From a virus (Duplodnaviria; Heunggongvirae; Uroviricota; Caudoviricetes), in IMG/VR virus record IMGVR_UViG_2648501336_000002: DNA of 41,928 nucleotides; one strand, given 5' to 3'. The translations under genes and the position numbers were made by a program. The notes beneath the pieces were generated by a model. The model was given only the letters and a program-made list of their open reading frames with translations. It was not told the origin of the DNA and ran no database searches. Numbering within the stretch: position 1 is the first letter of the stretch; each line of letters begins with the position of its first letter. This document shows, in pieces, positions 5,317-24,392 of this stretch.

Positions 5317-5669
5317 TACGCCTCCGATGTAACAGTCGTTATTCCATAGAGAGTGTCGATTTCAGTGGAAAACCTGACACGTCGGGTCGTGGTATCCACC
5401 GTAGTATTGAAAGAGAGGATTGATTTAACGCCCCGCGTTTCGAGGATGCGCTTACGGATCGCCAGGTTGTAGGTTTCCGGCTTCTGCTTACCGAGTACGG
5501 ACTGGATCCACGGAGTCCCCTCGGTGGTGTCGAGAAACCATTGCCCATACCACAATTCGAATCGCGTTTTTACCGCCTGCGCCACGGCCTCCGGTGAGTT
5601 AATCAGCCAGGTGTCATCACCGCTGCCAAAGGTGTAATCGCCATCGGCGTCTTCACGTCTGTATCGCAT
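5316..5669 (-). CDS. Baseplate protein (Mu gp46 / W-like)
   Basis: 117 aa, translationally coupled to neighbours; synteny. Confidence 0.45.
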   Translation of the reverse strand: MRYRREDADGDYTFGSGDDTWLINSPEAVAQAVKTRFELWYGQWFLDTTEGTPWIQSVLGKQKPETYNLAIRKRILETRGVKSILSFNTTVDTTTRRVRFSTEIDTLYGITTVTSEA

Positions 5670-6442
5670 CAGTTTACCCCATCGGTATTGCTTCCACCGC
5701 GCTGAACACCGCCATGAGTGTGCGTATCATCGATTGGCTTGCCGTTAGCCTTAACGCTCCCCAAGAACTCAACAGCACCAGTGATTTTTGAAGCCACACC
5801 AGAAACAACAGACCCCACCATGCCCCCCATCCAGGTTAACAGGCCATGAATGGTTACTTTCTCAGAAAAATCAGCCAGAGGGGCAACCACATCAAGACCA
5901 CCCGGAGCGACAATTTTAATTTTCCTGGTGTCAGGATTAAGCTCAAAATAGGTGCTGCCGTCGTCACTACGCAACTGTGTGGCACTGGTATTAATACCGC
6001 TAATCTTCCTCGCCTGCGACTGGGGACCGACAATACAAAACGCATCCGATAAATCATGCATTCTGTCATCGACCGGCTCCTGTATCCCGCCACTCTGCCA
6101 CCAGAAATCAATACAACGATCGGCAAAAACGACAAGACACTCATCCCCGGCTTTTACCGGAAAAGTCAACGTACAGCCTCCGCCGCGCGGGAATACCACT
6201 GGTACATCCACCAGCAGCGGGTAATTTTTGGTTACGCGGTTGCCGTCGTTGTCGGTTTCAACCGAACGAATAGCAGGCTGCACAACCGCCGTCACCGCGT
6301 CAGGATCGAATGACTGAACGATGCCAGGCAAAGCGACGCGGATCTGGTTCTTTGTGGTTTCCCGCTCGGATTTGAATGTTTCGGCAAGGTCGCCGCTGCG
6401 GGTCTGGTCAGATACTGCCATTTTGTAGGCTCCAGAAAGCAA
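5669..6442 (-). CDS. Baseplate assembly / spike protein (Mu gp45 / V-like)
   Basis: 257 aa in the track, using a TTG at 6442; a more likely start is ATG at 6421 (MAVSDQT) with a GGAG Shine-Dalgarno upstream. Confidence 0.55.
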   Translation of the reverse strand: MLSGAYKMAVSDQTRSGDLAETFKSERETTKNQIRVALPGIVQSFDPDAVTAVVQPAIRSVETDNDGNRVTKNYPLLVDVPVVFPRGGGCTLTFPVKAGDECLVVFADRCIDFWWQSGGIQEPVDDRMHDLSDAFCIVGPQSQARKISGINTSATQLRSDDGSTYFELNPDTRKIKIVAPGGLDVVAPLADFSEKVTIHGLLTWMGGMVGSVVSGVASKITGAVEFLGSVKANGKPIDDTHTHGGVQRGGSNTDGVN

Positions 6443-6465
6443 AAAACCCGCCGGGTGGCGGGTTT
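6438..6465 (-). terminator. Rho-independent terminator after the accessory cassette
   Basis: Minus strand: AAACCCGCC-ACCC-GGCGGGTTT followed by a T-run; sits between the stop of the 131-aa gene (6483) and the baseplate V-like start. Confidence 0.6.
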
Positions 6466-6482
6466 GATAACGTTAATTTTAT

Positions 6483-6878
6483 TCATGAAGCCCTAGCAGA
6501 CTTTAGCTGTTCCCAGCGCTCAAAATAGAGTTCAGCAGCCTCGATTGCATCCTGTCCCATCTCTTTCGAAACAGTCACATTCGTCAGATCATAGTCAGCT
6601 TCGTTTCTAGCATCCCGCCACTGGCGAAGTACGAAAGCCAGGGATTTCAGTGTATTTGTCGGGTATGGCTCTGATTTGCACTCTGATGGCGTTGACATAT
6701 AACCCACAGTATTTTTGTGATGCTCATGGGTAAAATGCGGTATGGCAGTAAGTGAGCTAATAGACTCATGTAACATACTGTAATACGCCCTTGAAATAGC
6801 GCTTCGAAATCCACTCTCAATATTTTCAGACAGACATAATCGAGCGGTATCGAGAATCTGATTGCTAGTTACCGACAT
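6483..6878 (-). CDS. Small hypothetical protein, possibly HEPN-like helical fold
   Basis: 131 aa, mostly helical; RAYYSMLH and a C-terminal RDARNEADY segment loosely resemble HEPN helices and an Rx4-6H-type motif with Tyr in place of His. Overlaps the upstream gene by 14 nt. Confidence 0.4.
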   Translation of the reverse strand: MSVTSNQILDTARLCLSENIESGFRSAISRAYYSMLHESISSLTAIPHFTHEHHKNTVGYMSTPSECKSEPYPTNTLKSLAFVLRQWRDARNEADYDLTNVTVSKEMGQDAIEAAELYFERWEQLKSARAS

Positions 6879-7638
6879 GGTAGCTCACCCCCGTATGCAA
6901 CTGACGCGGAGAGGTAAATCTAGCTAACAGGGAACAATCATCCAGTTTAGATTCAGCACAGACTCTATCAGCCAAATCGAAATTCATTTTGGCAATAGTT
7001 TTAGGCTCAAGATTTTTAATATCAACAACATAGCAACCGCTTCCACTAAGCTGAACGAAACCTGTCGTAGCCTTGTATTCACTTAGCAAGCCCCAGATTA
7101 TGGATGCTAAGGTCTGAAACTGTTCCTTCGAGCACTGTGTGGCGCTATAAAAATTATCCATTTCTGCAAGGAGTTCTTCTTTGTGCTTCATAGCATTACT
7201 CCTGCCTTCTGATTCAGAAAGAAGCTTAATGTGCTCTTCCATATAAAATTCTAACTGTTCACGCTCACCGCAACGGTACGCCCAACTGTATGCGTTGTGA
7301 CTAAAAAGTTTTGTCCGATACTTCTTTGCCAGCGGGACATAGACATCCTTGAGTTCATTATAGCTAAATGTATTAATTAAAATGTGATGATAGTGCATTG
7401 CCAACGTTACATCGTTTACTTCCAGGCTTATCCTGAGATAACGTAACGCGCTTTCGATCTTTCCGGTTATTGCATCCAGATAAGATAGTGCAATGTTGGT
7501 AGCAGGCGTTGGAGAGACAGAAAGTTCCTCTCGAATTTTCTTTTCAGTGAAGGGATCTAATCTTTCCCTATCCAATAGAAGCGCATTGAATTGTTCAACA
7601 TATTTTTGCGCTTTTTCTAGTGGGATGCCTGCCGCCAT
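6865..7638 (-). CDS. Hypothetical protein, first gene of the accessory two-gene cassette
   Basis: 257 aa, no motif recognised; lower GC than flanking tail genes; preceded by a promoter-like element. Confidence 0.5.
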   Translation of the reverse strand: MAAGIPLEKAQKYVEQFNALLLDRERLDPFTEKKIREELSVSPTPATNIALSYLDAITGKIESALRYLRISLEVNDVTLAMHYHHILINTFSYNELKDVYVPLAKKYRTKLFSHNAYSWAYRCGEREQLEFYMEEHIKLLSESEGRSNAMKHKEELLAEMDNFYSATQCSKEQFQTLASIIWGLLSEYKATTGFVQLSGSGCYVVDIKNLEPKTIAKMNFDLADRVCAESKLDDCSLLARFTSPRQLHTGVSYHVGN

Positions 7639-7667
7639 GGATTATTTCTCTTACTAAAGGGATTGTG

Positions 7668-7696
7668 ATTGTGAACTTTGAACAATATCTCGTCAA
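7668..7696 (-). promoter_or_regulatory. Candidate sigma70 promoter for the two-gene cassette
   Basis: Minus strand: -35 TTGACG (7696..7691), 17-nt spacer, -10 CACAAT (7673..7668), about 30 nt upstream of the ATG at 7638. Confidence 0.25.
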
Positions 7697-7733
7697 CCTT
7701 AAAGCGCTCATCTCGGAAGATTGACATCAAACT

Positions 7734-8081
7734 TTAGCGTAACGCCTTTTTACAAGGGAATGATCCGATGATTCTAGGCGCATCCATGCTGTTCTGCAGA
7801 AGCTGGACGTTCAGAAAAGCTTTTCCGTTACGCTTCACAAACTCAAAGCCGTAATTGTTGCCATCGCGGGAAGGCATCAGGCCCATGTCGGTTTTAACGT
7901 TGTCCCAGTCATCTTTCTGGCCAAGAAACTTAATTTTCTGAGATGTTACCTGTTCGCCGTTGATTTTCGTCCACCCGTTATCAGATGCATGAAGTCGGTA
8001 TCCTCCGCATTGCAAATCAGCGAAAGCCGATGAGCAGGAAAACAGTAACGAAATTGTCAGAACTAACTTCATACGCTTCAT
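7734..8081 (-). CDS. Small secreted protein (signal peptide), moron-like
   Basis: Likely start at 8081 (MKRMKLVLTISLLFSCSSAFA signal peptide); ATGA start/stop overlap with the upstream baseplate hub gene indicates translational coupling. Confidence 0.5.
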   Translation of the reverse strand: MKRMKLVLTISLLFSCSSAFADLQCGGYRLHASDNGWTKINGEQVTSQKIKFLGQKDDWDNVKTDMGLMPSRDGNNYGFEFVKRNGKAFLNVQLLQNSMDAPRIIGSFPCKKALR

Positions 8082-9145
8082 GAATAAAACCTTTGCTGCG
8101 CTGAGGACGAAAGTAAATCCGCCGCACCACGCGCTTCGCACATCATGTCCATGTACCACGCCTGGCCCCTTGTGTCACCAGTGTACATAATCCCGCGCAC
8201 AATATAAACGCCATCCGTTGCGATGCTGGCAGGCTGCGATGTGGTGCCGCTGAGCGTGATATTTCCGTCCGTGTTCTGGTCGGTGATCTGCCCACCGGCC
8301 ATCGCGATATCGTTGCTCGACAGTGCGGTGCGATATACGGAAGCCTGATCAAGCTGAATGAGCCCGTTAACCCGGATGTTCGGATTAATCAGCGCGCGGA
8401 CGTTTACGCCGTTACCGATAGTCTGCTGCGGCATGCCAATAAGCCCGGTAGCGCTGTTGAGCACAATCGCTTCGTGAACATATTCGTTATTCGCCACCAT
8501 CTGGCGCTGACCGTCCACGAATTGCCATGTTGCGCCACATTGCCCGGCTACGTTATCCATAAGATGCCGCGTCATGCCAAAGAGTACCCGCCCCCGGGGG
8601 AATACAGTAGCAGGCATTTCAGGCGTCAGACCTTCAGTCGCGCCTTTGGCCTCGAAGTCTTTCATCAGCGCGCGATTCACGTCTGCGACCGTATAACCGG
8701 CCGCCAGCGTCTGCGAAGTTATGCTGGTGGCAAAAGCCAGATCCGTATCGGCTGCCTGAATCAGAACGTAAGAATCAATGGGGCTGTCTTTTCCTGTTAC
8801 CGAGTAACGAATTTCGCCGCTGAAAATCATCCCATAGTTGCGGCCATCACTCTGGCCCACATCCGCCGCATCGACTTCCCGCACGGTCCCGACGTCGCTG
8901 GCCGATACCTCCGGCGCGATACCGTCGTAACCCGCAATCAGGCGCACTTTCGAAAACTCCTGCCCGGTGATTCGGTTCACAGTATCTGCCGAGAGGTTAT
9001 AAATTTTGATAGTCCCTACCCGGGACGCGCTGCTGATGTTGAACCAGTCGATCGTAAAGGTGACTTTGAAATCACTTAGCTCAATTCCCTGACCGTTCCC
9101 GTCCACAAGCTGCAGCTCGAAATGTCTCATCCAGTTCTGTGACAT
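8078..9145 (-). CDS. Baseplate hub protein (Mu gp44 / P2 D-like)
   Basis: 355 aa; position between the tape-measure region and the baseplate genes. Confidence 0.5.
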   Translation of the reverse strand: MSQNWMRHFELQLVDGNGQGIELSDFKVTFTIDWFNISSASRVGTIKIYNLSADTVNRITGQEFSKVRLIAGYDGIAPEVSASDVGTVREVDAADVGQSDGRNYGMIFSGEIRYSVTGKDSPIDSYVLIQAADTDLAFATSITSQTLAAGYTVADVNRALMKDFEAKGATEGLTPEMPATVFPRGRVLFGMTRHLMDNVAGQCGATWQFVDGQRQMVANNEYVHEAIVLNSATGLIGMPQQTIGNGVNVRALINPNIRVNGLIQLDQASVYRTALSSNDIAMAGGQITDQNTDGNITLSGTTSQPASIATDGVYIVRGIMYTGDTRGQAWYMDMMCEARGAADLLSSSAQQRFYS

Positions 9146-9147
9146 GC

Positions 9148-9450
9148 TTACTCCGTTGATACCAGTAAATGACTGCGACCGCCCAGGTCAGTTTTCGTGG
9201 GATAATCCTGTGTGTTGTCATCGCAGACCACCAACAGCTTAAAACCAAGCCCCATACAGGCGTACTGCGCCAGCAGATCAGCGCCAGTGACGAGAGGAAT
9301 ACCGGAGATTACCGGCTCTCCTCTGTCGTTCTGCAGGTCCATAATCCAGTAAGGATCTCGCCATATGATGCTAATCCGCCAGGTGGCACCACCCAGGACG
9401 ATGCTGAACTGCTGGTTGTCCGCTGTCAGCGGAATTTCCTGAATTGTCAT
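9148..9450 (-). CDS. Tail protein (hypothetical)
   Basis: 100 aa, tightly packed in the tail operon. Confidence 0.35.
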   Translation of the reverse strand: MTIQEIPLTADNQQFSIVLGGATWRISIIWRDPYWIMDLQNDRGEPVISGIPLVTGADLLAQYACMGLGFKLLVVCDDNTQDYPTKTDLGGRSHLLVSTE

Positions 9451-10037
9451 TAGCCGCCCCCCAGTAATGACGCCACGTTACCCGTGATGCTTTTCAGCAG
9501 TGAAGTATCTGGAGGCTTTGTGGTTTTGTTGCCGCTATTCTGTACCGCCGACGTGCTGGCCCCTTCCTTCATGTTGGTTTTATCCGCGACGGTAATCTGC
9601 TGTGTCCGGGAGATAAGGACCTCCCTCAGGGTGAGGACGGCGGACAGGACGTTTTCGGTTGTCTTGTCCGTCGTCACTTCCAGCGCCCGGATCAACATGT
9701 TGCTGTACAGTCGTTTACCGGTTACCACATCGAAGGGGATACGGCTTTCCTGCAGATCCAGTAGCTCCTGATACGTCTGCTGAGGACTCAGGCCGAGCAG
9801 GCTGGTAGCCGTCAGATTACTGGCAAAATCCAGCAATGCGCCGCCACCGGCGAAACCAACCTCCATCACCACTTCTGACGGTTTTTTATAGGCATGATCA
9901 GCGACAGCGGCCCCGACCTCTACCGGATGCTCTGTTATTTCAAGCATATCTGTATGCTTCTCTGAAATAACAACACTGGGAACAATCATTCCTATTTTTC
10001 TGCTCTGCTGATGAAAAAGTGTAGAGAGAATATCCAC
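9450..10037 (-). CDS. Tail protein (hypothetical, possibly Mu gp43-like)
   Basis: 195 aa immediately downstream of the tape measure. Confidence 0.35.
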   Translation of the reverse strand: MDILSTLFHQQSRKIGMIVPSVVISEKHTDMLEITEHPVEVGAAVADHAYKKPSEVVMEVGFAGGGALLDFASNLTATSLLGLSPQQTYQELLDLQESRIPFDVVTGKRLYSNMLIRALEVTTDKTTENVLSAVLTLREVLISRTQQITVADKTNMKEGASTSAVQNSGNKTTKPPDTSLLKSITGNVASLLGGG

Positions 10038-12046
10038 TAACCCACCCTCACCTGATTACTTCGCATGACCTGAGCATTTGCAGACTGTTGCCGACGTGCA
10101 ACCTCATTACCGACAGCGTGCGGATCTCCGCCACCGTAAATGTGGTAAGTATTTTGCTGGTTAACCTCTGTCATTTTGCCACTAATTCCCGCCACGGCAG
10201 CCTTATTAATCAGCTCTCGAGAATAGATATTTCTTCCATTTTCATGCTGGATAATGCTGCTCATCAATGCTGACATGGTTTGCGGATCTCTCATATTCAG
10301 GGCAGCCCGGGGATCCACTCCCAGTCGTTGCGATACAGCCCTGATATACGCAGTTGTGTTGTTATTATCAGACGCAGGTGCCCAGGTAGAGATAATTTTC
10401 TCCACACTGTTTATTCCCCGTCCGGCGTACAGCATTAACTGACGAGCAAGAGCCCGTAATCCATCAAAGGCAGTTTCAAATCTGGCAAATCGCCCGCCCG
10501 GGCGTTCAAGAGAAGCCCCTGCCTGACCAGCAAAATTAAGGTTTCCCGGATTGTTATTCCGTTCTCCTCGTTTCGTAGCCTGTGCATGTTGTTCTGGCTC
10601 ATCATCACCAAACCAGCCGCGTACCGTCCGGCCCACGCTGCGGGGATCGAATCCCCAGTGCTCTTTAATCCAGTCGGCAGTACTGTTAGCGCTGTCTGTA
10701 ACCATCGGCATCGCTGACGGATTTTCGCTGCCCTGATTAAGTATCTGTTTGCCGATGCTGACGGCATCAGCCCAGCGGCCATCTTTGATAGCGTTGAGCA
10801 GGTCGGCGATCATGTTCAGCATTTTGCTGAATTCGCCCATCTGGTCGATGAATTTGCTGAAATCCCACTTCAGGGACCATGATTTGAGGTCAATATTGAG
10901 CAGTTTCGCCAGCGCTTTCACCAGGTCGTTAACGGTTGTTTTAAGGTCACGAACCATCTTCAGCGCGGCATCGACCTCCGGTTTCCACTTGCCCCAGTCA
11001 ATCAGGCTGTCGCCGCCTTCCTTCCAGGTCTGATAGTCCTCCCACAGGAGGGCAATCCCCGCCGCCAGCGCGGTAATGAGGCCAATCGGCGACATCCAGA
11101 ACGTACTGTTCAGAATGCGCAGCGCAATCGTCAGTGCGCCAAACAGCGAGATCAACTCCCGCGTTTGCTTATCCAGCGATTGCCACCAGGTGATAAGGCC
11201 TGATGTCCCCTCAATCAGTCTGAAGAACAGCCGCCCGATTATATCCCCGAGCGCCAGAATGCCTTTTATGGCTTTCGTCAGAGTCTGCTCGATGCGCGGG
11301 AAGTTGTCCAGGATATGGCGGCGCAGGGTGTCCAGCGACCCCGCAAGTCCACCCGCAAGATTAGAGCCGATTTTGTCACGGGCCATGCCTGCCATCGCGC
11401 TAAACTCACGCAGGGAGGTCATAAATTTGTTGGAGCTTCTGGCCGCCTCGTCAGCATTGAAGCCGATCGCTTTCACCATTTCTGAATACTGAGCGCTGAA
11501 CTGCCCCACTCCGCGACGCATAGCCATCAGGGTATTTTCGTCAATGCCCAGCATCTGCGCATACTGGTTAGCCCGGTAATACGGCATGCTGCTGAGTTTC
11601 TGTCCAACGCCCGTAAAGATAGCGGCCATGTCACGCATGTTACCGCTGGCATCACGGGTCTGTACGCCCAGGCGATTCAGAAAGCCTTCTGCACCGGGAT
11701 TGTTACGAATAAACCGGGAGAGGCTTTCCAGAGAAGATCGCGCAGCGTCCACGCTGCCGCCAACCTGCGAAACCGCATAGCCAATAGACTGAATTCCCTG
11801 GACTGTCGCGCCGGTGCGCTGTGACGCCCAGTAAAGATTATCCAGGCCGGAGGCGATCTTAGCCGTGAAGGCCACCACGGACAGCGCAGCTCCTTCAACA
11901 GCCAGCCCCATTTTGATGACATTTGCAGTTGTACCGGCGAGGACAGAACCGAACTTTTTCGCTCCTGCATCATCCACACTGAAGCCAAGCGAGACGAGGA
12001 AATCTTTAATAGTTTCAGCGTTCATTATCCTCTCTCCATTTCTCAA
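10037..12046 (-). CDS. Tail tape measure protein
   Basis: 669 aa, helical and Ala/Gly-rich with hydrophobic central segments. The track start at 12046 is a TTG; an ATG at 12025 (MNAETIK) is more likely. Confidence 0.7.
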   Translation of the reverse strand: MRNGERIMNAETIKDFLVSLGFSVDDAGAKKFGSVLAGTTANVIKMGLAVEGAALSVVAFTAKIASGLDNLYWASQRTGATVQGIQSIGYAVSQVGGSVDAARSSLESLSRFIRNNPGAEGFLNRLGVQTRDASGNMRDMAAIFTGVGQKLSSMPYYRANQYAQMLGIDENTLMAMRRGVGQFSAQYSEMVKAIGFNADEAARSSNKFMTSLREFSAMAGMARDKIGSNLAGGLAGSLDTLRRHILDNFPRIEQTLTKAIKGILALGDIIGRLFFRLIEGTSGLITWWQSLDKQTRELISLFGALTIALRILNSTFWMSPIGLITALAAGIALLWEDYQTWKEGGDSLIDWGKWKPEVDAALKMVRDLKTTVNDLVKALAKLLNIDLKSWSLKWDFSKFIDQMGEFSKMLNMIADLLNAIKDGRWADAVSIGKQILNQGSENPSAMPMVTDSANSTADWIKEHWGFDPRSVGRTVRGWFGDDEPEQHAQATKRGERNNNPGNLNFAGQAGASLERPGGRFARFETAFDGLRALARQLMLYAGRGINSVEKIISTWAPASDNNNTTAYIRAVSQRLGVDPRAALNMRDPQTMSALMSSIIQHENGRNIYSRELINKAAVAGISGKMTEVNQQNTYHIYGGGDPHAVGNEVARRQQSANAQVMRSNQVRVG

Positions 12047-12202: not shown

Positions 12203-12655
12203 TCAGCCCTGTTGCAGGCTCTGCGTCGTGCTGGTAAGGGGTGTAGGCAAAAAATTTCCCAGCGAATCGGCGACCACCCGCGCCACCAGCTGCAGCATGA
12301 CCAGCAAGTCAATATCATCAAACATCAGTTCGCCCTGGGTAAATACCGGCACCCATCTGTCCATATGACGCCGCGATACCACCGCAAGACAGGGATGAAT
12401 AATTGCATCGGTGTCATCTTCGGTCAGGGAAGACAGTTCCTCAGCGATACGCGGGAGCATGGTTTCAAACACCGGTTTTAACTGTTCGAATTTCACGGTG
12501 TCGATTTTGCCGTCAGCAGGCAAACGGGAGCGAATACTCCCGAAATCTGACATCATTCCTGCCAGCACCGGCAGAAGTTTGCGGGTCACTTTCAGCTGGT
12601 CAAAAACGCTGAGTTTTGCCGTGCGATATTTCACGCCTTTAATTTCGAATTCCAT
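12203..12655 (-). CDS. Tail assembly chaperone (G-like), with a probable -1 frameshift extension to 12015
   Basis: 150 aa directly upstream of the tape measure; slippery heptamer near its 3' end and an open -1 frame across the 156-nt gap. Confidence 0.6.
   Translation of the reverse strand: MEFEIKGVKYRTAKLSVFDQLKVTRKLLPVLAGMMSDFGSIRSRLPADGKIDTVKFEQLKPVFETMLPRIAEELSSLTEDDTDAIIHPCLAVVSRRHMDRWVPVFTQGELMFDDIDLLVMLQLVARVVADSLGNFLPTPLTSTTQSLQQG
12248..12254 (-). promoter_or_regulatory. Programmed -1 ribosomal frameshift slippery site (T_TTT_TTG)
   Basis: Zero-frame codons AAT TTT TTG; the -1 frame then reads AYTPYQHDAEPATGLTFNSL... for 77 codons to a TGA at 12017..12015. Confidence 0.5.
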
Positions 12656-12658
12656 GCA

Positions 12659-13099
12659 TTAAAACTCCCCGAGAACCTGGTCAATCTTGCCGCAGTCAAA
12701 CACCCACGGCATCGTATTACCGGTTTTAGCGTTGGCGTTATCCGGTTGTTTCTGGAACGCAACACTGCGTGCCGTGATGATGTCGCCGCTGACCTTGTTG
12801 CGGATCACGATAACGTTATTCCCCCATGTGGCAGAAGACTGGCTCTGTGCGTTATACGCCAGCGACAATTTTTTATTTGTCGGTGATGTCTTCAGAAGGT
12901 TAACGGTAATCGTCCCGCTTTTATCTGCATGGAGACTGTGCATCACTTCGCCATCAGCACCGATGGTCATGGTGTTTTTAGGACCGCCCATCGCAACCAC
13001 AATCCCCTCTTCAGAACTTGCAGAACCGTACCCGAGGTCAATCGAACCGGTCGGCCCGGTCAGCGTCGCAGTGACATCCATAAAAGAATAGGTAGACAT
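12659..13099 (-). CDS. Tail tube protein
   Basis: 146 aa between the sheath and the chaperone; contractile-tail synteny. Confidence 0.55.
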   Translation of the reverse strand: MSTYSFMDVTATLTGPTGSIDLGYGSASSEEGIVVAMGGPKNTMTIGADGEVMHSLHADKSGTITVNLLKTSPTNKKLSLAYNAQSQSSATWGNNVIVIRNKVSGDIITARSVAFQKQPDNANAKTGNTMPWVFDCGKIDQVLGEF

Positions 13100-13109
13100 T
13101 CACTTCCCC

Positions 13110-14255
13110 TTAGCGAACAACGTTAATCTGTACGTCAGCGTAATGAACCGCGCCTGCAAGTTTTATTGCAGCCTGAATCACCGGAGCCTTACGGGCTTCA
13201 CGTTCTGATTGTGCCTGTTCATCCAGCGGCTGGGCGTATACGTAATAACCTTTGGGCAGCGTGTCACCTGATGACAACTGACCAAGGTCGCCACCGTTCC
13301 ATACGCCCGGAGCAATCAGTCCATTCTGAACGGCCTGATCCAGTGATTTTTCAACATTTGATAACAGTCGGGTAATACCGGCTTCAGTCTGGGGAACTTT
13401 CGTGGTGCTGGTATAAAGCAGGTTATAGAGGTTGGTCTGCACATAATTCTGTAACCAGTCCAGGCCGTGGCGTTCATCAAAGAAATCGCCGTTAGCCATC
13501 ACTCCCTGCTGGAGGATAGCCGTATCATTCTGGTAGTACACGAATACATTGCAGTTTTTTGCATCAAGTACCGATGCCTGGCTGACGGTCAGTGTTTCAT
13601 ACCCGACACCCGGCTCCTGCTTAAACTTGAGCGTAATCGCGGTATTACTGCCATTGAAATTAACCGTGAATGCCCGGCCAAATGCAGATAACGCAGCGTA
13701 TTTATTACCCGATGAATACTGAATAAAACTGCGTGAATATCCGGCGGTTTTCAGTTTTGATGCCAAATCATCGCTGGATGCAGTCTGCAGGCATTTATCA
13801 TCGCTTGTCGTAATCGCCAGAATACGGCTTACAGAAGAGGATTCGATCGCCGCAGCCACTTTCAGCCAGTCTGCATTCGGAATATCTTCATCGTCTGCAA
13901 TCCCCAGCCCATACCATGAAGTATAATCGAGCATGGCATTCACAGCCTGCTCCAGCGTCTCAGGCGTGGCCTGTTCGCTGTCTCCCTTCGTTTTCACCCA
14001 ACGACCAACAAAAACCTCCTGAGTTTTCGGTGATTGAGAGAAAAACACCTGCGCAGCCTTATATTCTGGTGATTCCACGCCAAAATCTTTTCCAATATCT
14101 TCCGCGGCAGAATAACGGCGAATGCGCTCACTTACCGGAATGATTGTGGACGGGCCGAGAATGAGTAATGCACCAAAATTTCGCCCTGATGCTGCACGCG
14201 GCGACATGATCACATCAACATTAACAACGTTTGATACAGGCAAGCCCTGTGCCAT
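13110..14255 (-). CDS. Tail sheath protein
   Basis: 381 aa upstream of the tube gene; synteny. Confidence 0.55.
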
Positions 14256-23407: not shown

Positions 23408-23932
23408 TTACCGGGACTGTTCTATTTGTCGGACACCAGCCAACTGGTTATTCGCCTTCTCGATGGCCGCCAACAGTGGGTTAATCCACAGAACAGCCTG
23501 GCAATATGTCAACGTTCTGGTGGTAGTGGCACGATCACCGGCTGAGTCAATGTCCCCGGAATCGGCGTGCAATGCGCTGGCGCGTAAACGGTTCGCGTAG
23601 TTGAGCAACCCGACAGCAATATCAACAGGAACAGGGAAATCACAGTTCTTTTCACGGAGCAGAACCTCACGGTATTTGATGACTGTCTTCTCGTGACCGA
23701 TGTCGACCAGAGAATTTAATCGGCTTGCGTTTTCTGCTATCTGGTTAAAACGATTGAAGTTTAATGCCTGATTAGCTATCACTTTCCCTTGATATTCAGC
23801 TTCACCTTCCGCTTTATCAGCCCGCAACTTTTCTGCCTGATACTTGCTGTGGTAATGGTTTGCAGACCAGACGAGCGCCCCAAAGGCAGAGAAGAAAAAT
23901 GCCGCGATGACAATCTTATAAGTCAGCTTCAT
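23408..23932 (-). CDS. Rz-like spanin (inner-membrane subunit); embedded Rz1 not verified
   Basis: 174 aa with an N-terminal TM helix, directly after the endolysin. Confidence 0.55.
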   Translation of the reverse strand: MKLTYKIVIAAFFFSAFGALVWSANHYHSKYQAEKLRADKAEGEAEYQGKVIANQALNFNRFNQIAENASRLNSLVDIGHEKTVIKYREVLLREKNCDFPVPVDIAVGLLNYANRLRASALHADSGDIDSAGDRATTTRTLTYCQAVLWINPLLAAIEKANNQLAGVRQIEQSR

Positions 23933-24392
23933 TTACCACCCCACCAGCATCTTTAAACCTGGAAATCAGGTCACCGATTTTATGTTCATACTGACCGTAA
24001 CCTGCACCAGGTAACGACGCCCAGATATTGCTGCAACGGTCGATTGCCTGACGAATATCGCCACGGTCAATCATCGGTAAAGCGCCACGCTCTTTAATCT
24101 GCTGCAGCGCCACAGCGTCCTGACTTTCTGGCGAAAAATCTTTCAGGCCAAGCTGCTTACGGTAGGCATCCCACCAGCGTGAAAGAAGCTGATACCGTCC
24201 TGCGGCTGTTGATTTAAGCTTCGGGTTTAGCGTGACAAGTTTGCGAGGGTGATCGGAGTAATCAGTGAACAACTCACCTCCGACGATAACGTCATAACCG
24301 TGATTACGTGTCGGTTGTCGCCCGTTATCCGTTCCTTCTGACCATGCCACCATATCCAGGAAAGCTTTACGTTGGGAATTTAGTGTCTGCAT
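23916..24392 (-). CDS. R: Endolysin, lambda R-type lytic transglycosylase
   Basis: 158 aa nearly collinear with lambda R as recalled (QRKAFLDMVAWSEGTDNGRQ...GRYQLLSRWWDAYRKQLGLKDFSP). Confidence 0.85.
   Translation of the reverse strand: MQTLNSQRKAFLDMVAWSEGTDNGRQPTRNHGYDVIVGGELFTDYSDHPRKLVTLNPKLKSTAAGRYQLLSRWWDAYRKQLGLKDFSPESQDAVALQQIKERGALPMIDRGDIRQAIDRCSNIWASLPGAGYGQYEHKIGDLISRFKDAGGVVNEADL

Follow-up and report, generated by a model that had tools for sequence, protein, structure and literature searches.

What does a small exported protein do in the middle of an operon that builds the tip of a phage tail? This question is raised by a gene at positions 7734..8081, on the minus strand, of a 41,928-nucleotide stretch of viral DNA (Caudoviricetes; IMG/VR record IMGVR_UViG_2648501336_000002), the whole of which is called the window in the following. 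The gene comprises 115 codons plus a stop, lies immediately downstream of the baseplate hub gene and belongs to the family phrog_3443, also named 'STY1065/STY2022 family phage-derived protein'. Its start is coupled to the end of the hub gene, its product bears export signals, the gene order around it is conserved, and related baseplates exist that do without it. Comparison of sequences supports well the view that the small protein is an exported periplasmic accessory protein, made late together with the baseplate. As to its role, we tentatively favor an envelope-level exclusion or immunity-like factor, which would act in the periplasm of the producing cell.

The open reading frame (ORF) runs on the minus strand from an ATG at 8081 to a stop codon at 7736-7734 and encodes a product of 115 amino acids (aa); the same coding sequence was annotated by the Prokaryotic Genome Annotation Pipeline (PGAP) in a 100% identical prophage of Escherichia coli KOr019. 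The initial annotation, made from the letters of the window alone, had reported that the start codon overlaps the TGA of an upstream hub gene, and both elements of this statement hold. An ATGA is present at 8078..8081 on the minus strand, in which the two three-base codons (ATG 8081-8079, TGA 8080-8078) overlap in an arrangement typical of translational coupling, and the upstream gene (8078..9145, minus strand, 355 aa) matches the baseplate hub family phrog_196 with E = 9e-88, along with a weak match to Pfam E217_GP41. A Shine-Dalgarno-like AAGG is located at 8093-8090, 8 nucleotides (nt) upstream of the small-gene start. For the analysis of genomic context, 40 loci from one-genome-per-species contigs and 80 loci from IMG/VR were used (locus numbers are given with the prefix L). 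The small ORF is a real gene and not a chance reading frame, since homologues form 401 clusters at 90% identity in a search of 5.8 billion proteins, the ratio of nonsynonymous to synonymous substitutions (dN/dS) in the mature part is 0.09-0.30, and the distance from the hub stop to the small-gene start is only -4 to +5 nt in 33/41 loci. An Rfam scan of positions 6000-9500 gave no match. In phage SEN34, the deposited annotation (L004 2434-2775) begins the gene at an internal methionine and thereby yields 77 aa; tblastn nevertheless recovers the complete ORF with its signal peptide there (query residues 1-113).

The N-terminus of the protein, MKRMKLVLTISLLFSCSSAFA followed by DLQCGG, has the features of a classical signal peptide, as the initial annotation had proposed. 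Residues 1-21 (8019..8081, minus strand) were assigned by rules, namely a positively charged n-region, a hydrophobic h-region of ~10 residues and small residues at -3/-1; they divide into the n-region MKRMK, the h-region LVLTISLLF and a final SCSSAFA, whose AxA site precedes D, with a predicted cut by signal peptidase I after AFA. Among 133 full-length homologues, the hydrophobic core is found in all 133, an AxA-like site just before the conserved cysteine in 132, and an N-terminal lysine or arginine in 129. The remaining mature domain has 94 residues and ends in FPCKKALR, in good agreement with the roughly 95-residue domain described earlier. The four cysteines attributed to this domain had to be revised: the protein contains three, of which C16 belongs to the signal peptide and only C25 and C110 to the mature part. 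Exactly two mature cysteines occur in 132/133 homologues, C25 and C110 being invariant, and across the whole superfamily nothing else is invariant apart from one leucine. The LFSC at C16 is only lipobox-like, with F at -2, and is not conserved; close alleles have I, F or V at -1 of the cysteine at this position. A strict lipobox ([LVI][ASTVI][GAS]C) was found in 2/133 members, and the window protein lacks this mark of a lipoprotein processed by signal peptidase II.

Two kinds of divergent relatives bear on the same point. Fusion proteins of 290-292 aa (L005 6001-6879; L006; L007; P0135, P0156) occupy the position after the hub and consist of a ~190-aa N-terminal domain with a lipobox, which carries T or A at +2, joined to the domain of the small protein. 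This N-terminal domain is restricted to the fusions (13 clusters, no annotation), so that it yields no functional clue, and a single-sequence AlphaFold2 model of P0135 was unusable (pLDDT, the predicted local distance difference test score, of 31.5). Furthermore, a divergent subfamily (motif VRTSQSQIRIRGxYDCE), likewise with signal peptides, is encoded by single chromosomal genes outside tail modules (L013 7001-7357; L014 7001-7339; L015 7001-7402; L011 6001-6342). The settings of these orphan copies include a site between cls/yciY and yciI, a site next to fliE beside a prophage remnant, and one that precedes an Hcp gene of type VI secretion by 1.4 kb; a type VI secretion link for the latter was considered and dropped, the other genes near Hcp being uninformative. 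Export to the periplasm is well supported because the signal peptide with its AxA site and the two-cysteine pattern are family-wide, lipobox fusions exist and the orphan copies have signal peptides as well.

The structure prediction that the initial annotation had suggested as a check was carried out with AlphaFold2 on a 39-sequence alignment and gave a model with a mean pLDDT of 82.6, in which the signal helix is followed by eight beta-strands. The mature domain (7737..8018, minus strand) is thus predicted to be a small eight-stranded up-and-down beta-barrel. The invariant Cys25 (8007-8009) and Cys110 (7752-7754, both minus strand) lie on the first and the last strand of the model, respectively. 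Because these two strands close an up-and-down barrel, a disulfide between Cys25 and Cys110 is a reasonable proposal and would probably tie the first and last strands together. Within the mature domain, a variable, mosaic N-terminal half (residues 22-64) is joined to a conserved C-terminal half (residues 65-115). In outer-membrane barrels, the strands that span the membrane have at least ~10 residues, and the chain typically ends in an aromatic residue. The strands of our model are 3-8 residues long, which is not what is found in barrels of the Lom/Ail/OmpX type.

Searches of the model with Foldseek against BFVD and PDB returned no significant match and no specific structural relative, and a profile search against PDB sequences gave none at E <= 10. 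The best fold matches, all of them weak, were avidins, lipocalin-like and fatty-acid-binding-like barrels and the Cap15 nucleotide receptor. These matches, together with the chromosomal copies outside prophages, would suit a calycin- or avidin-like periplasmic protein that serves ligand binding or host physiology late in infection, for example as a binder of envelope precursors or small hydrophobic molecules, with no role in exclusion. We regard this as unlikely, although it deserves mention: every one of the fold matches is weak, and it would be left unexplained why the gene is so strictly coupled to the hub, why the N-terminal half is a mosaic and why the paralogue array described below exists.

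The position of the gene invites another explanation, namely that the protein is a component of the virion or of baseplate assembly whose hydrophobic N-terminus stays uncleaved. A fixed site in the baseplate operon, the translational coupling to the hub gene and a divergence that correlates with those of the hub and Dit proteins all speak in its favor. However, export is indicated by the AxA site, the paired mature cysteines and the fusions to a lipoprotein domain, and the small proteins are only 56-89% identical where the hubs are 93-97% identical. In addition, homologous baseplates lack the gene altogether. Among seven outgroup phages with more distant homologous hubs (24-38% identity), five proceed directly from hub to spike (Ralstonia PY059YO380, Edwardsiella ZHS, Aaphi23, Salmonella BP63 and Acinetobacter Ab105-1phi), which means that the baseplate does without the small protein. 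Two related phages carry other secreted proteins in this region: in Providencia phage PSTCR3, a 157-aa signal-peptide protein with cysteines lies between plug and hub (L059 1963-2436, plus strand), and in Burkholderia phage Magia, a 123-aa signal-peptide protein with cysteines lies between hub and spike on the opposite strand (L061 3457-3828, minus strand). Profile comparison of both proteins with the small-protein family detected no homology. The hub complex of Pam3 is reported to consist of gp18, gp19 and gp20 only (PMC11633184). A virion proteome was found for none of the carrier phages, and the SEN34 paper (PMC5261728) contains none; the published proteome of MMNM (PMC11633184) comes from a Jedunavirus, a different genus that does not figure in the phage records having a homologue. 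A virion role thus appears extremely improbable, and the comparison of homologous baseplates supports well that the small protein is not a virion or baseplate part. The conserved signal peptide and cysteines, the lipoprotein fusions, the chromosomal orphans and the baseplates without the gene all agree with the original suggestion of a secreted protein rather than a virion component.

How, then, is the gene expressed? The tail module of the window follows the order of simple myophages, with tape measure, Dit-like, Pam3-gp18-like plug and hub genes, and then spike, sheath initiator, baseplate J, wedge and fibre. The small gene is found directly after the hub gene in phages of E. coli, Klebsiella, Yersinia, Salmonella and Citrobacter; it adjoins the hub in 77/78 IMG/VR loci and in nearly all of the 40 genome loci, and it comes directly after the hub in ~110/~120 loci overall, with one exceptional lineage (L009) in which it lies between plug and hub. 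A consensus scan of the minus strand at 8081-9200, which includes the 3' end of the hub gene, revealed no promoter-like site for the small gene, and no terminator was detected directly after it. Genes for a Q-like antiterminator, holin, endolysin and spanin are located further upstream on the same strand within the window. This organization fits a single late transcript, which would read through the terminator of the moron described below. A role in lysis is unlikely, as the window already provides holin, endolysin and spanin genes at other positions.

This mode of expression bears directly on the suggestion, also part of the initial annotation, that the protein is a lysogenic-conversion factor. 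A conversion or virulence factor expressed from the prophage, acting for instance in serum resistance or adhesion, could be expected to look like an exported protein on a prophage, and every carrier phage examined is temperate. There are precedents: lambda Lom and Bor are exported proteins encoded in or near the late regions of temperate phages, and a moron of this type is by definition equipped with a promoter and a terminator of its own and active in lysogens. The small gene, in contrast, has neither a promoter-like site nor a terminator of its own, its start overlaps the hub stop, and the promoter-like site of the true moron is found only downstream of it; the lambda-type features belong to the neighboring pair of genes for 257 and 131 aa. 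Nor does the small gene share other traits of morons, as it is not sporadic and its GC fraction of 0.47 is intermediate between the hub gene (0.55) and the cargo genes (0.40-0.44). Moreover, carriers are found in insect-associated, plant-associated and environmental Enterobacterales as well as in pathogens, and the protein, which has no aromatic residue at its C-terminus, is of insufficient length for a barrel across the membrane. A conversion role is therefore very unlikely in our view. That the small gene is not a lysogenic-conversion moron is well supported by its arrangement, and this part of the initial annotation was abandoned.

The true moron starts only after the small gene. DNA similarity between loci stops exactly at the small-gene stop codon (boundary at 7734), which marks this point as the beginning of a cargo hotspot. 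From here, the distance to the spike gene (5669..6442, minus strand; N-terminal domain of the product PF18352) ranges from zero (L051-L055) to ~4 kb, with unrelated cargo in between (hotspot loci: window, L002-L004, L012, L018-L057 and L066-L145). The spike gene follows the hub directly in the five outgroup phages named above and the small gene directly in the cargo-free loci. Cargo of the hotspot includes HEPN-like pairs (window, L028), many signal-peptide or membrane proteins (L018, L030, L032, L041 and SEN34) and a pair in L047 that is Phd/Doc-like by the look of the sequences alone. In the window, a sigma-70-like match, TTGACG-17-CACAAT, at 7668..7696 (minus strand) in the 95-nt gap after the small-gene stop is the putative moron promoter; it is a consensus match only, and the number of such matches equals the shuffle expectation. 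It is followed on the minus strand by a low-GC gene for 257 aa (6865..7638; phrog_17809, a family of unassigned function) and, with an overlap of 14 nt, by a gene for 131 aa (6483..6878; phrog_5176), which shows a weak HEPN-like match to PDB 9xbd (E = 0.002). A strong hairpin resembling an intrinsic terminator (6444..6465, minus strand; 9 pairs and a T run) closes the unit. The GC fraction of the pair, given above, compares with 0.55 in the flanking tail genes. With its promoter-like site and terminator-like hairpin, the cargo pair is to be read as a classical moron; it had no match in PADLOC and may represent an undescribed two-gene defence or toxin-antitoxin module.

As a separate observation, a perfect 15-nt inverted repeat, TTTTATTCATGAAGC, at 6477-6491 and 8075-8089 brackets the small gene and the two cargo genes. 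The number of such pairs expected by chance in 2 kb is estimated at ~0.002. Only the window allele carries the repeat (L072 and L073 share 12 nt of it), and 108 other loci lack it, by which a general mobile or invertible element is ruled out; it probably reflects either a footprint of recombination or the chance agreement of two stop contexts with the letters TCATGA.

To place the small protein among known sequences, we compared it with public collections. The match to the phrog_3443 profile covers residues 1-112 against profile positions 1-112 of 115 (E = 7.9e-55), and the PGAP family name was given to an allele at the same genomic position in E. coli RIVM_C029670. The 401 clusters all contain proteins of ~105-120 aa from Enterobacterales, which are named 'hypothetical', 'secreted protein' or 'putative exported protein'. 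A profile search of 1.84 billion cluster representatives found only 64, which indicates a narrow family. Relatives are present on 344 IMG/VR viral contigs, and part of the stretch at 6400-8200, which holds the small gene plus cargo, matches 311/5,426 complete E. coli genomes. Family carriers are SEN34-like temperate myophages of Enterobacterales, and all examined phage records with the small gene are temperate phages or induced prophages. Searches against Pfam (E <= 0.1), NCBIfam and PADLOC gave no match, and a full-text search for the locus tags STY1065/STY2022 found no biology papers on the family. It is thus already catalogued, by phrog and by PGAP, but uncharacterised.

In a sliding comparison with the window on the minus strand, DNA identity is 90-98% in the hub gene up to ~8100, falls to 35-70% in the 5' half of the small gene, which encodes the signal peptide and the first strands, rises to 81-100% in the 3' half in several loci and vanishes after the stop codon. 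The 5' half is thus a mosaic cassette, which accounts for the divergence of the proteins next to near-identical hubs. The proteins themselves have a mean identity of 0.47 over the N-terminal half, against 0.65 over the C-terminal one. E. coli alone harbors several types of N-terminal allele, and recombinants between allele types are found, such as P0015 and L058; in the latter, a different N-terminal type is joined to the same C-terminal part, and the cargo is also the same. In a Serratia aquatilis prophage (L040 9458-14346, NZ_CP173186.1), six full and one truncated tandem paralogues are located between hub and spike, split by an insertion sequence transposase gene on the opposite strand (12325-13533). 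Here too, the copies are nearly identical in their C-terminal halves but not in their N-terminal ones.

Which function could such a protein have? The reading we favor, tentatively, is that of an exclusion factor. The small gene would share transcription and translation with the hub during late lytic growth, from the phage late operon, and its product would be exported by the Sec machinery and cut by signal peptidase I after AFA. In the periplasm it would fold into the 94-residue eight-stranded barrel, probably with the disulfide between Cys25 and Cys110. The barrel might then bind an incoming tail-tip part (the hub, the spike or the tape-measure complex) or an envelope component needed for penetration, and an already committed cell would thereby be protected against puncture or injection by further particles. 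In this scheme, the scaffold would be the conserved C-terminal half, and specificity would reside in the variable N-terminal half. This reading is favored because of the periplasmic location, the fixed link to the tail tip and the unrelated secreted proteins found there in two related phages, and also because of the scaffold with exchangeable halves, the multiple alleles in one host species and the one expansion that resembles an immunity array. Going one step further, the family might be the founding member of a new group of periplasmic exclusion proteins directed against contractile tail tips, in which the N-terminal half sets the specificity and arrays broaden the protection; this extension is somewhat more doubtful.

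Several points weigh against an exclusion role. No homology to a described exclusion or defence protein was detected in PADLOC, Pfam, NCBIfam or the structure searches, and the matches in fold are of a generic kind. The exclusion genes known from prophages mostly act in the lysogen. A gene expressed only late would protect the producing cell and cannot protect a lysogen. In pairwise comparison, the C-terminal half has a dN/dS of 0.09 and the N-terminal half one of 0.30; with both values below 1, positive selection is not demonstrated, and the N-terminal half under purifying selection points to reduced constraint plus recombination. When pairs of loci are compared, the small protein diverges in step with the hub (rho 0.54 for its N-terminal and 0.74 for its C-terminal half) and with Dit (rho 0.44 and 0.69, respectively), which could be explained by physical linkage. 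There is no correlation with the tail fibre (rho -0.05 to 0.15), and the lysin domain of the tape measure is not tracked either (rho 0.17-0.29). Finally, the paralogue array is a single case among ~120 loci, and the 80 IMG/VR loci are single-copy.

The comparisons with the tail fibre and the lysin domain also bear on more specific mechanisms. The tape measure protein, named lytic transglycosylase by PGAP, ends in a peptidoglycan-hydrolase domain with an RNNNPGN motif (10037..10610, minus strand), which matches PDB 7q47 'Endolysin' (E = 6.9e-14) and the N-terminus of 9vvp Gp29 (E = 8e-20). It offers a concrete periplasmic target for an inhibitor of the Spackle or PliC kind, in which the barrel would block the incoming tape-measure hydrolase so that the tail cannot cross the cell wall. 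As the phage's own endolysin (23916-24392) is of a different family and unrelated to this domain, lysis would be unaffected. The co-variation expected of such a pair is weak, however, and we rank this mechanism lower for that reason: in L002 the lysin domain is 98% identical to that of the window and the small protein only 68%. The small gene also co-occurs with at least two lysin types, since the related prophage L005 has a different C-terminal lysin (Pfam SLT) and many loci show no or only a partial match to the lysin domain of the window. In addition, there is no Pfam match to MliC or PliC, and the conserved motifs of these families are absent from the alignments of the small-protein family. 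Lysin inhibition is accordingly an improbable mechanism in our judgment.

We assess similarly a masking of receptors or of the envelope, as in lytic conversion, where a protein made late would inactivate an outer-membrane component from the periplasm and thereby spare progeny from adsorbing to debris and block late superinfection. Late expression together with the tail genes, deduced from the gene order, would suit this idea, as would the T or A at +2 of the fusion lipoboxes, which by the standard sorting rule suggests anchoring in the outer membrane, and the envelope proteins often encoded by hotspot cargo. Yet most members are soluble, as judged from the rarity of the strict lipobox, no homology to Llp or Cor exists, and the N-terminal half does not track the type of tail fibre, the latter being the reason for its lower rank. 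Masking is therefore an option to which we assign a rather small probability.

Comparison with known systems shows where an exclusion factor of this kind would stand. Within the phrog_3443 or STY1065/STY2022 family, the small protein shares size, signal peptide and the position after the hub, and nothing sets it apart. Its closest functional analogue would be Spackle (Sp) of phage T4, a small signal-peptide protein in the periplasm of the infected cell, which acts against the tail-tip lysozyme of the superinfecting phage. Spackle is helical and encoded by an early gene of a virulent phage outside the baseplate operon, whereas the small protein is a predicted barrel, late, and encoded within the baseplate operon; neither the PDB profile search nor the structure searches revealed a relation in sequence or fold. 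Llp of T5 and Cor of phi80, N15 and T1 are small envelope lipoproteins encoded beside tail or receptor-binding genes, which block re-infection and protect progeny, their receptor being FhuA. Lipoprotein-anchored versions of the small-protein domain are reminiscent of them, but members of our family are mostly soluble and show no link to tail fibres and no homology. HK97 gp15 is a superinfection-exclusion moron among tail genes; it resides in the inner membrane, blocks DNA entry and has its own promoter in the prophage, which distinguishes it from the small gene with its coupling to the hub and no promoter-like site. The PliC/MliC periplasmic lysozyme inhibitors and the periplasmic immunity proteins of type VI secretion (e.g. 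BtaiB) are further systems for comparison.

If the exclusion role holds true, the small protein would differ from Spackle, Llp/Cor and HK97 gp15 in fold, in its late, hub-coupled expression and in its modular specificity. A barrel that blocks tail penetration from the periplasm would extend the few envelope-level exclusion mechanisms by a fold and a gene arrangement that are both new, and arrays directed against tail tips would be a phage counterpart of the immunity arrays of type VI secretion. The hotspot between hub and spike, with its toxin-antitoxin-like, HEPN-like and envelope genes, could furthermore be mined for defence systems. The family is widespread yet uncharacterised and offers a clear, testable candidate, though surprising biology is not yet apparent. 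An exclusion function, if true, would help to explain which contractile-tailed phages infect cells that carry or produce these prophages, a matter of interest for phage therapy against Klebsiella, E. coli and Salmonella.

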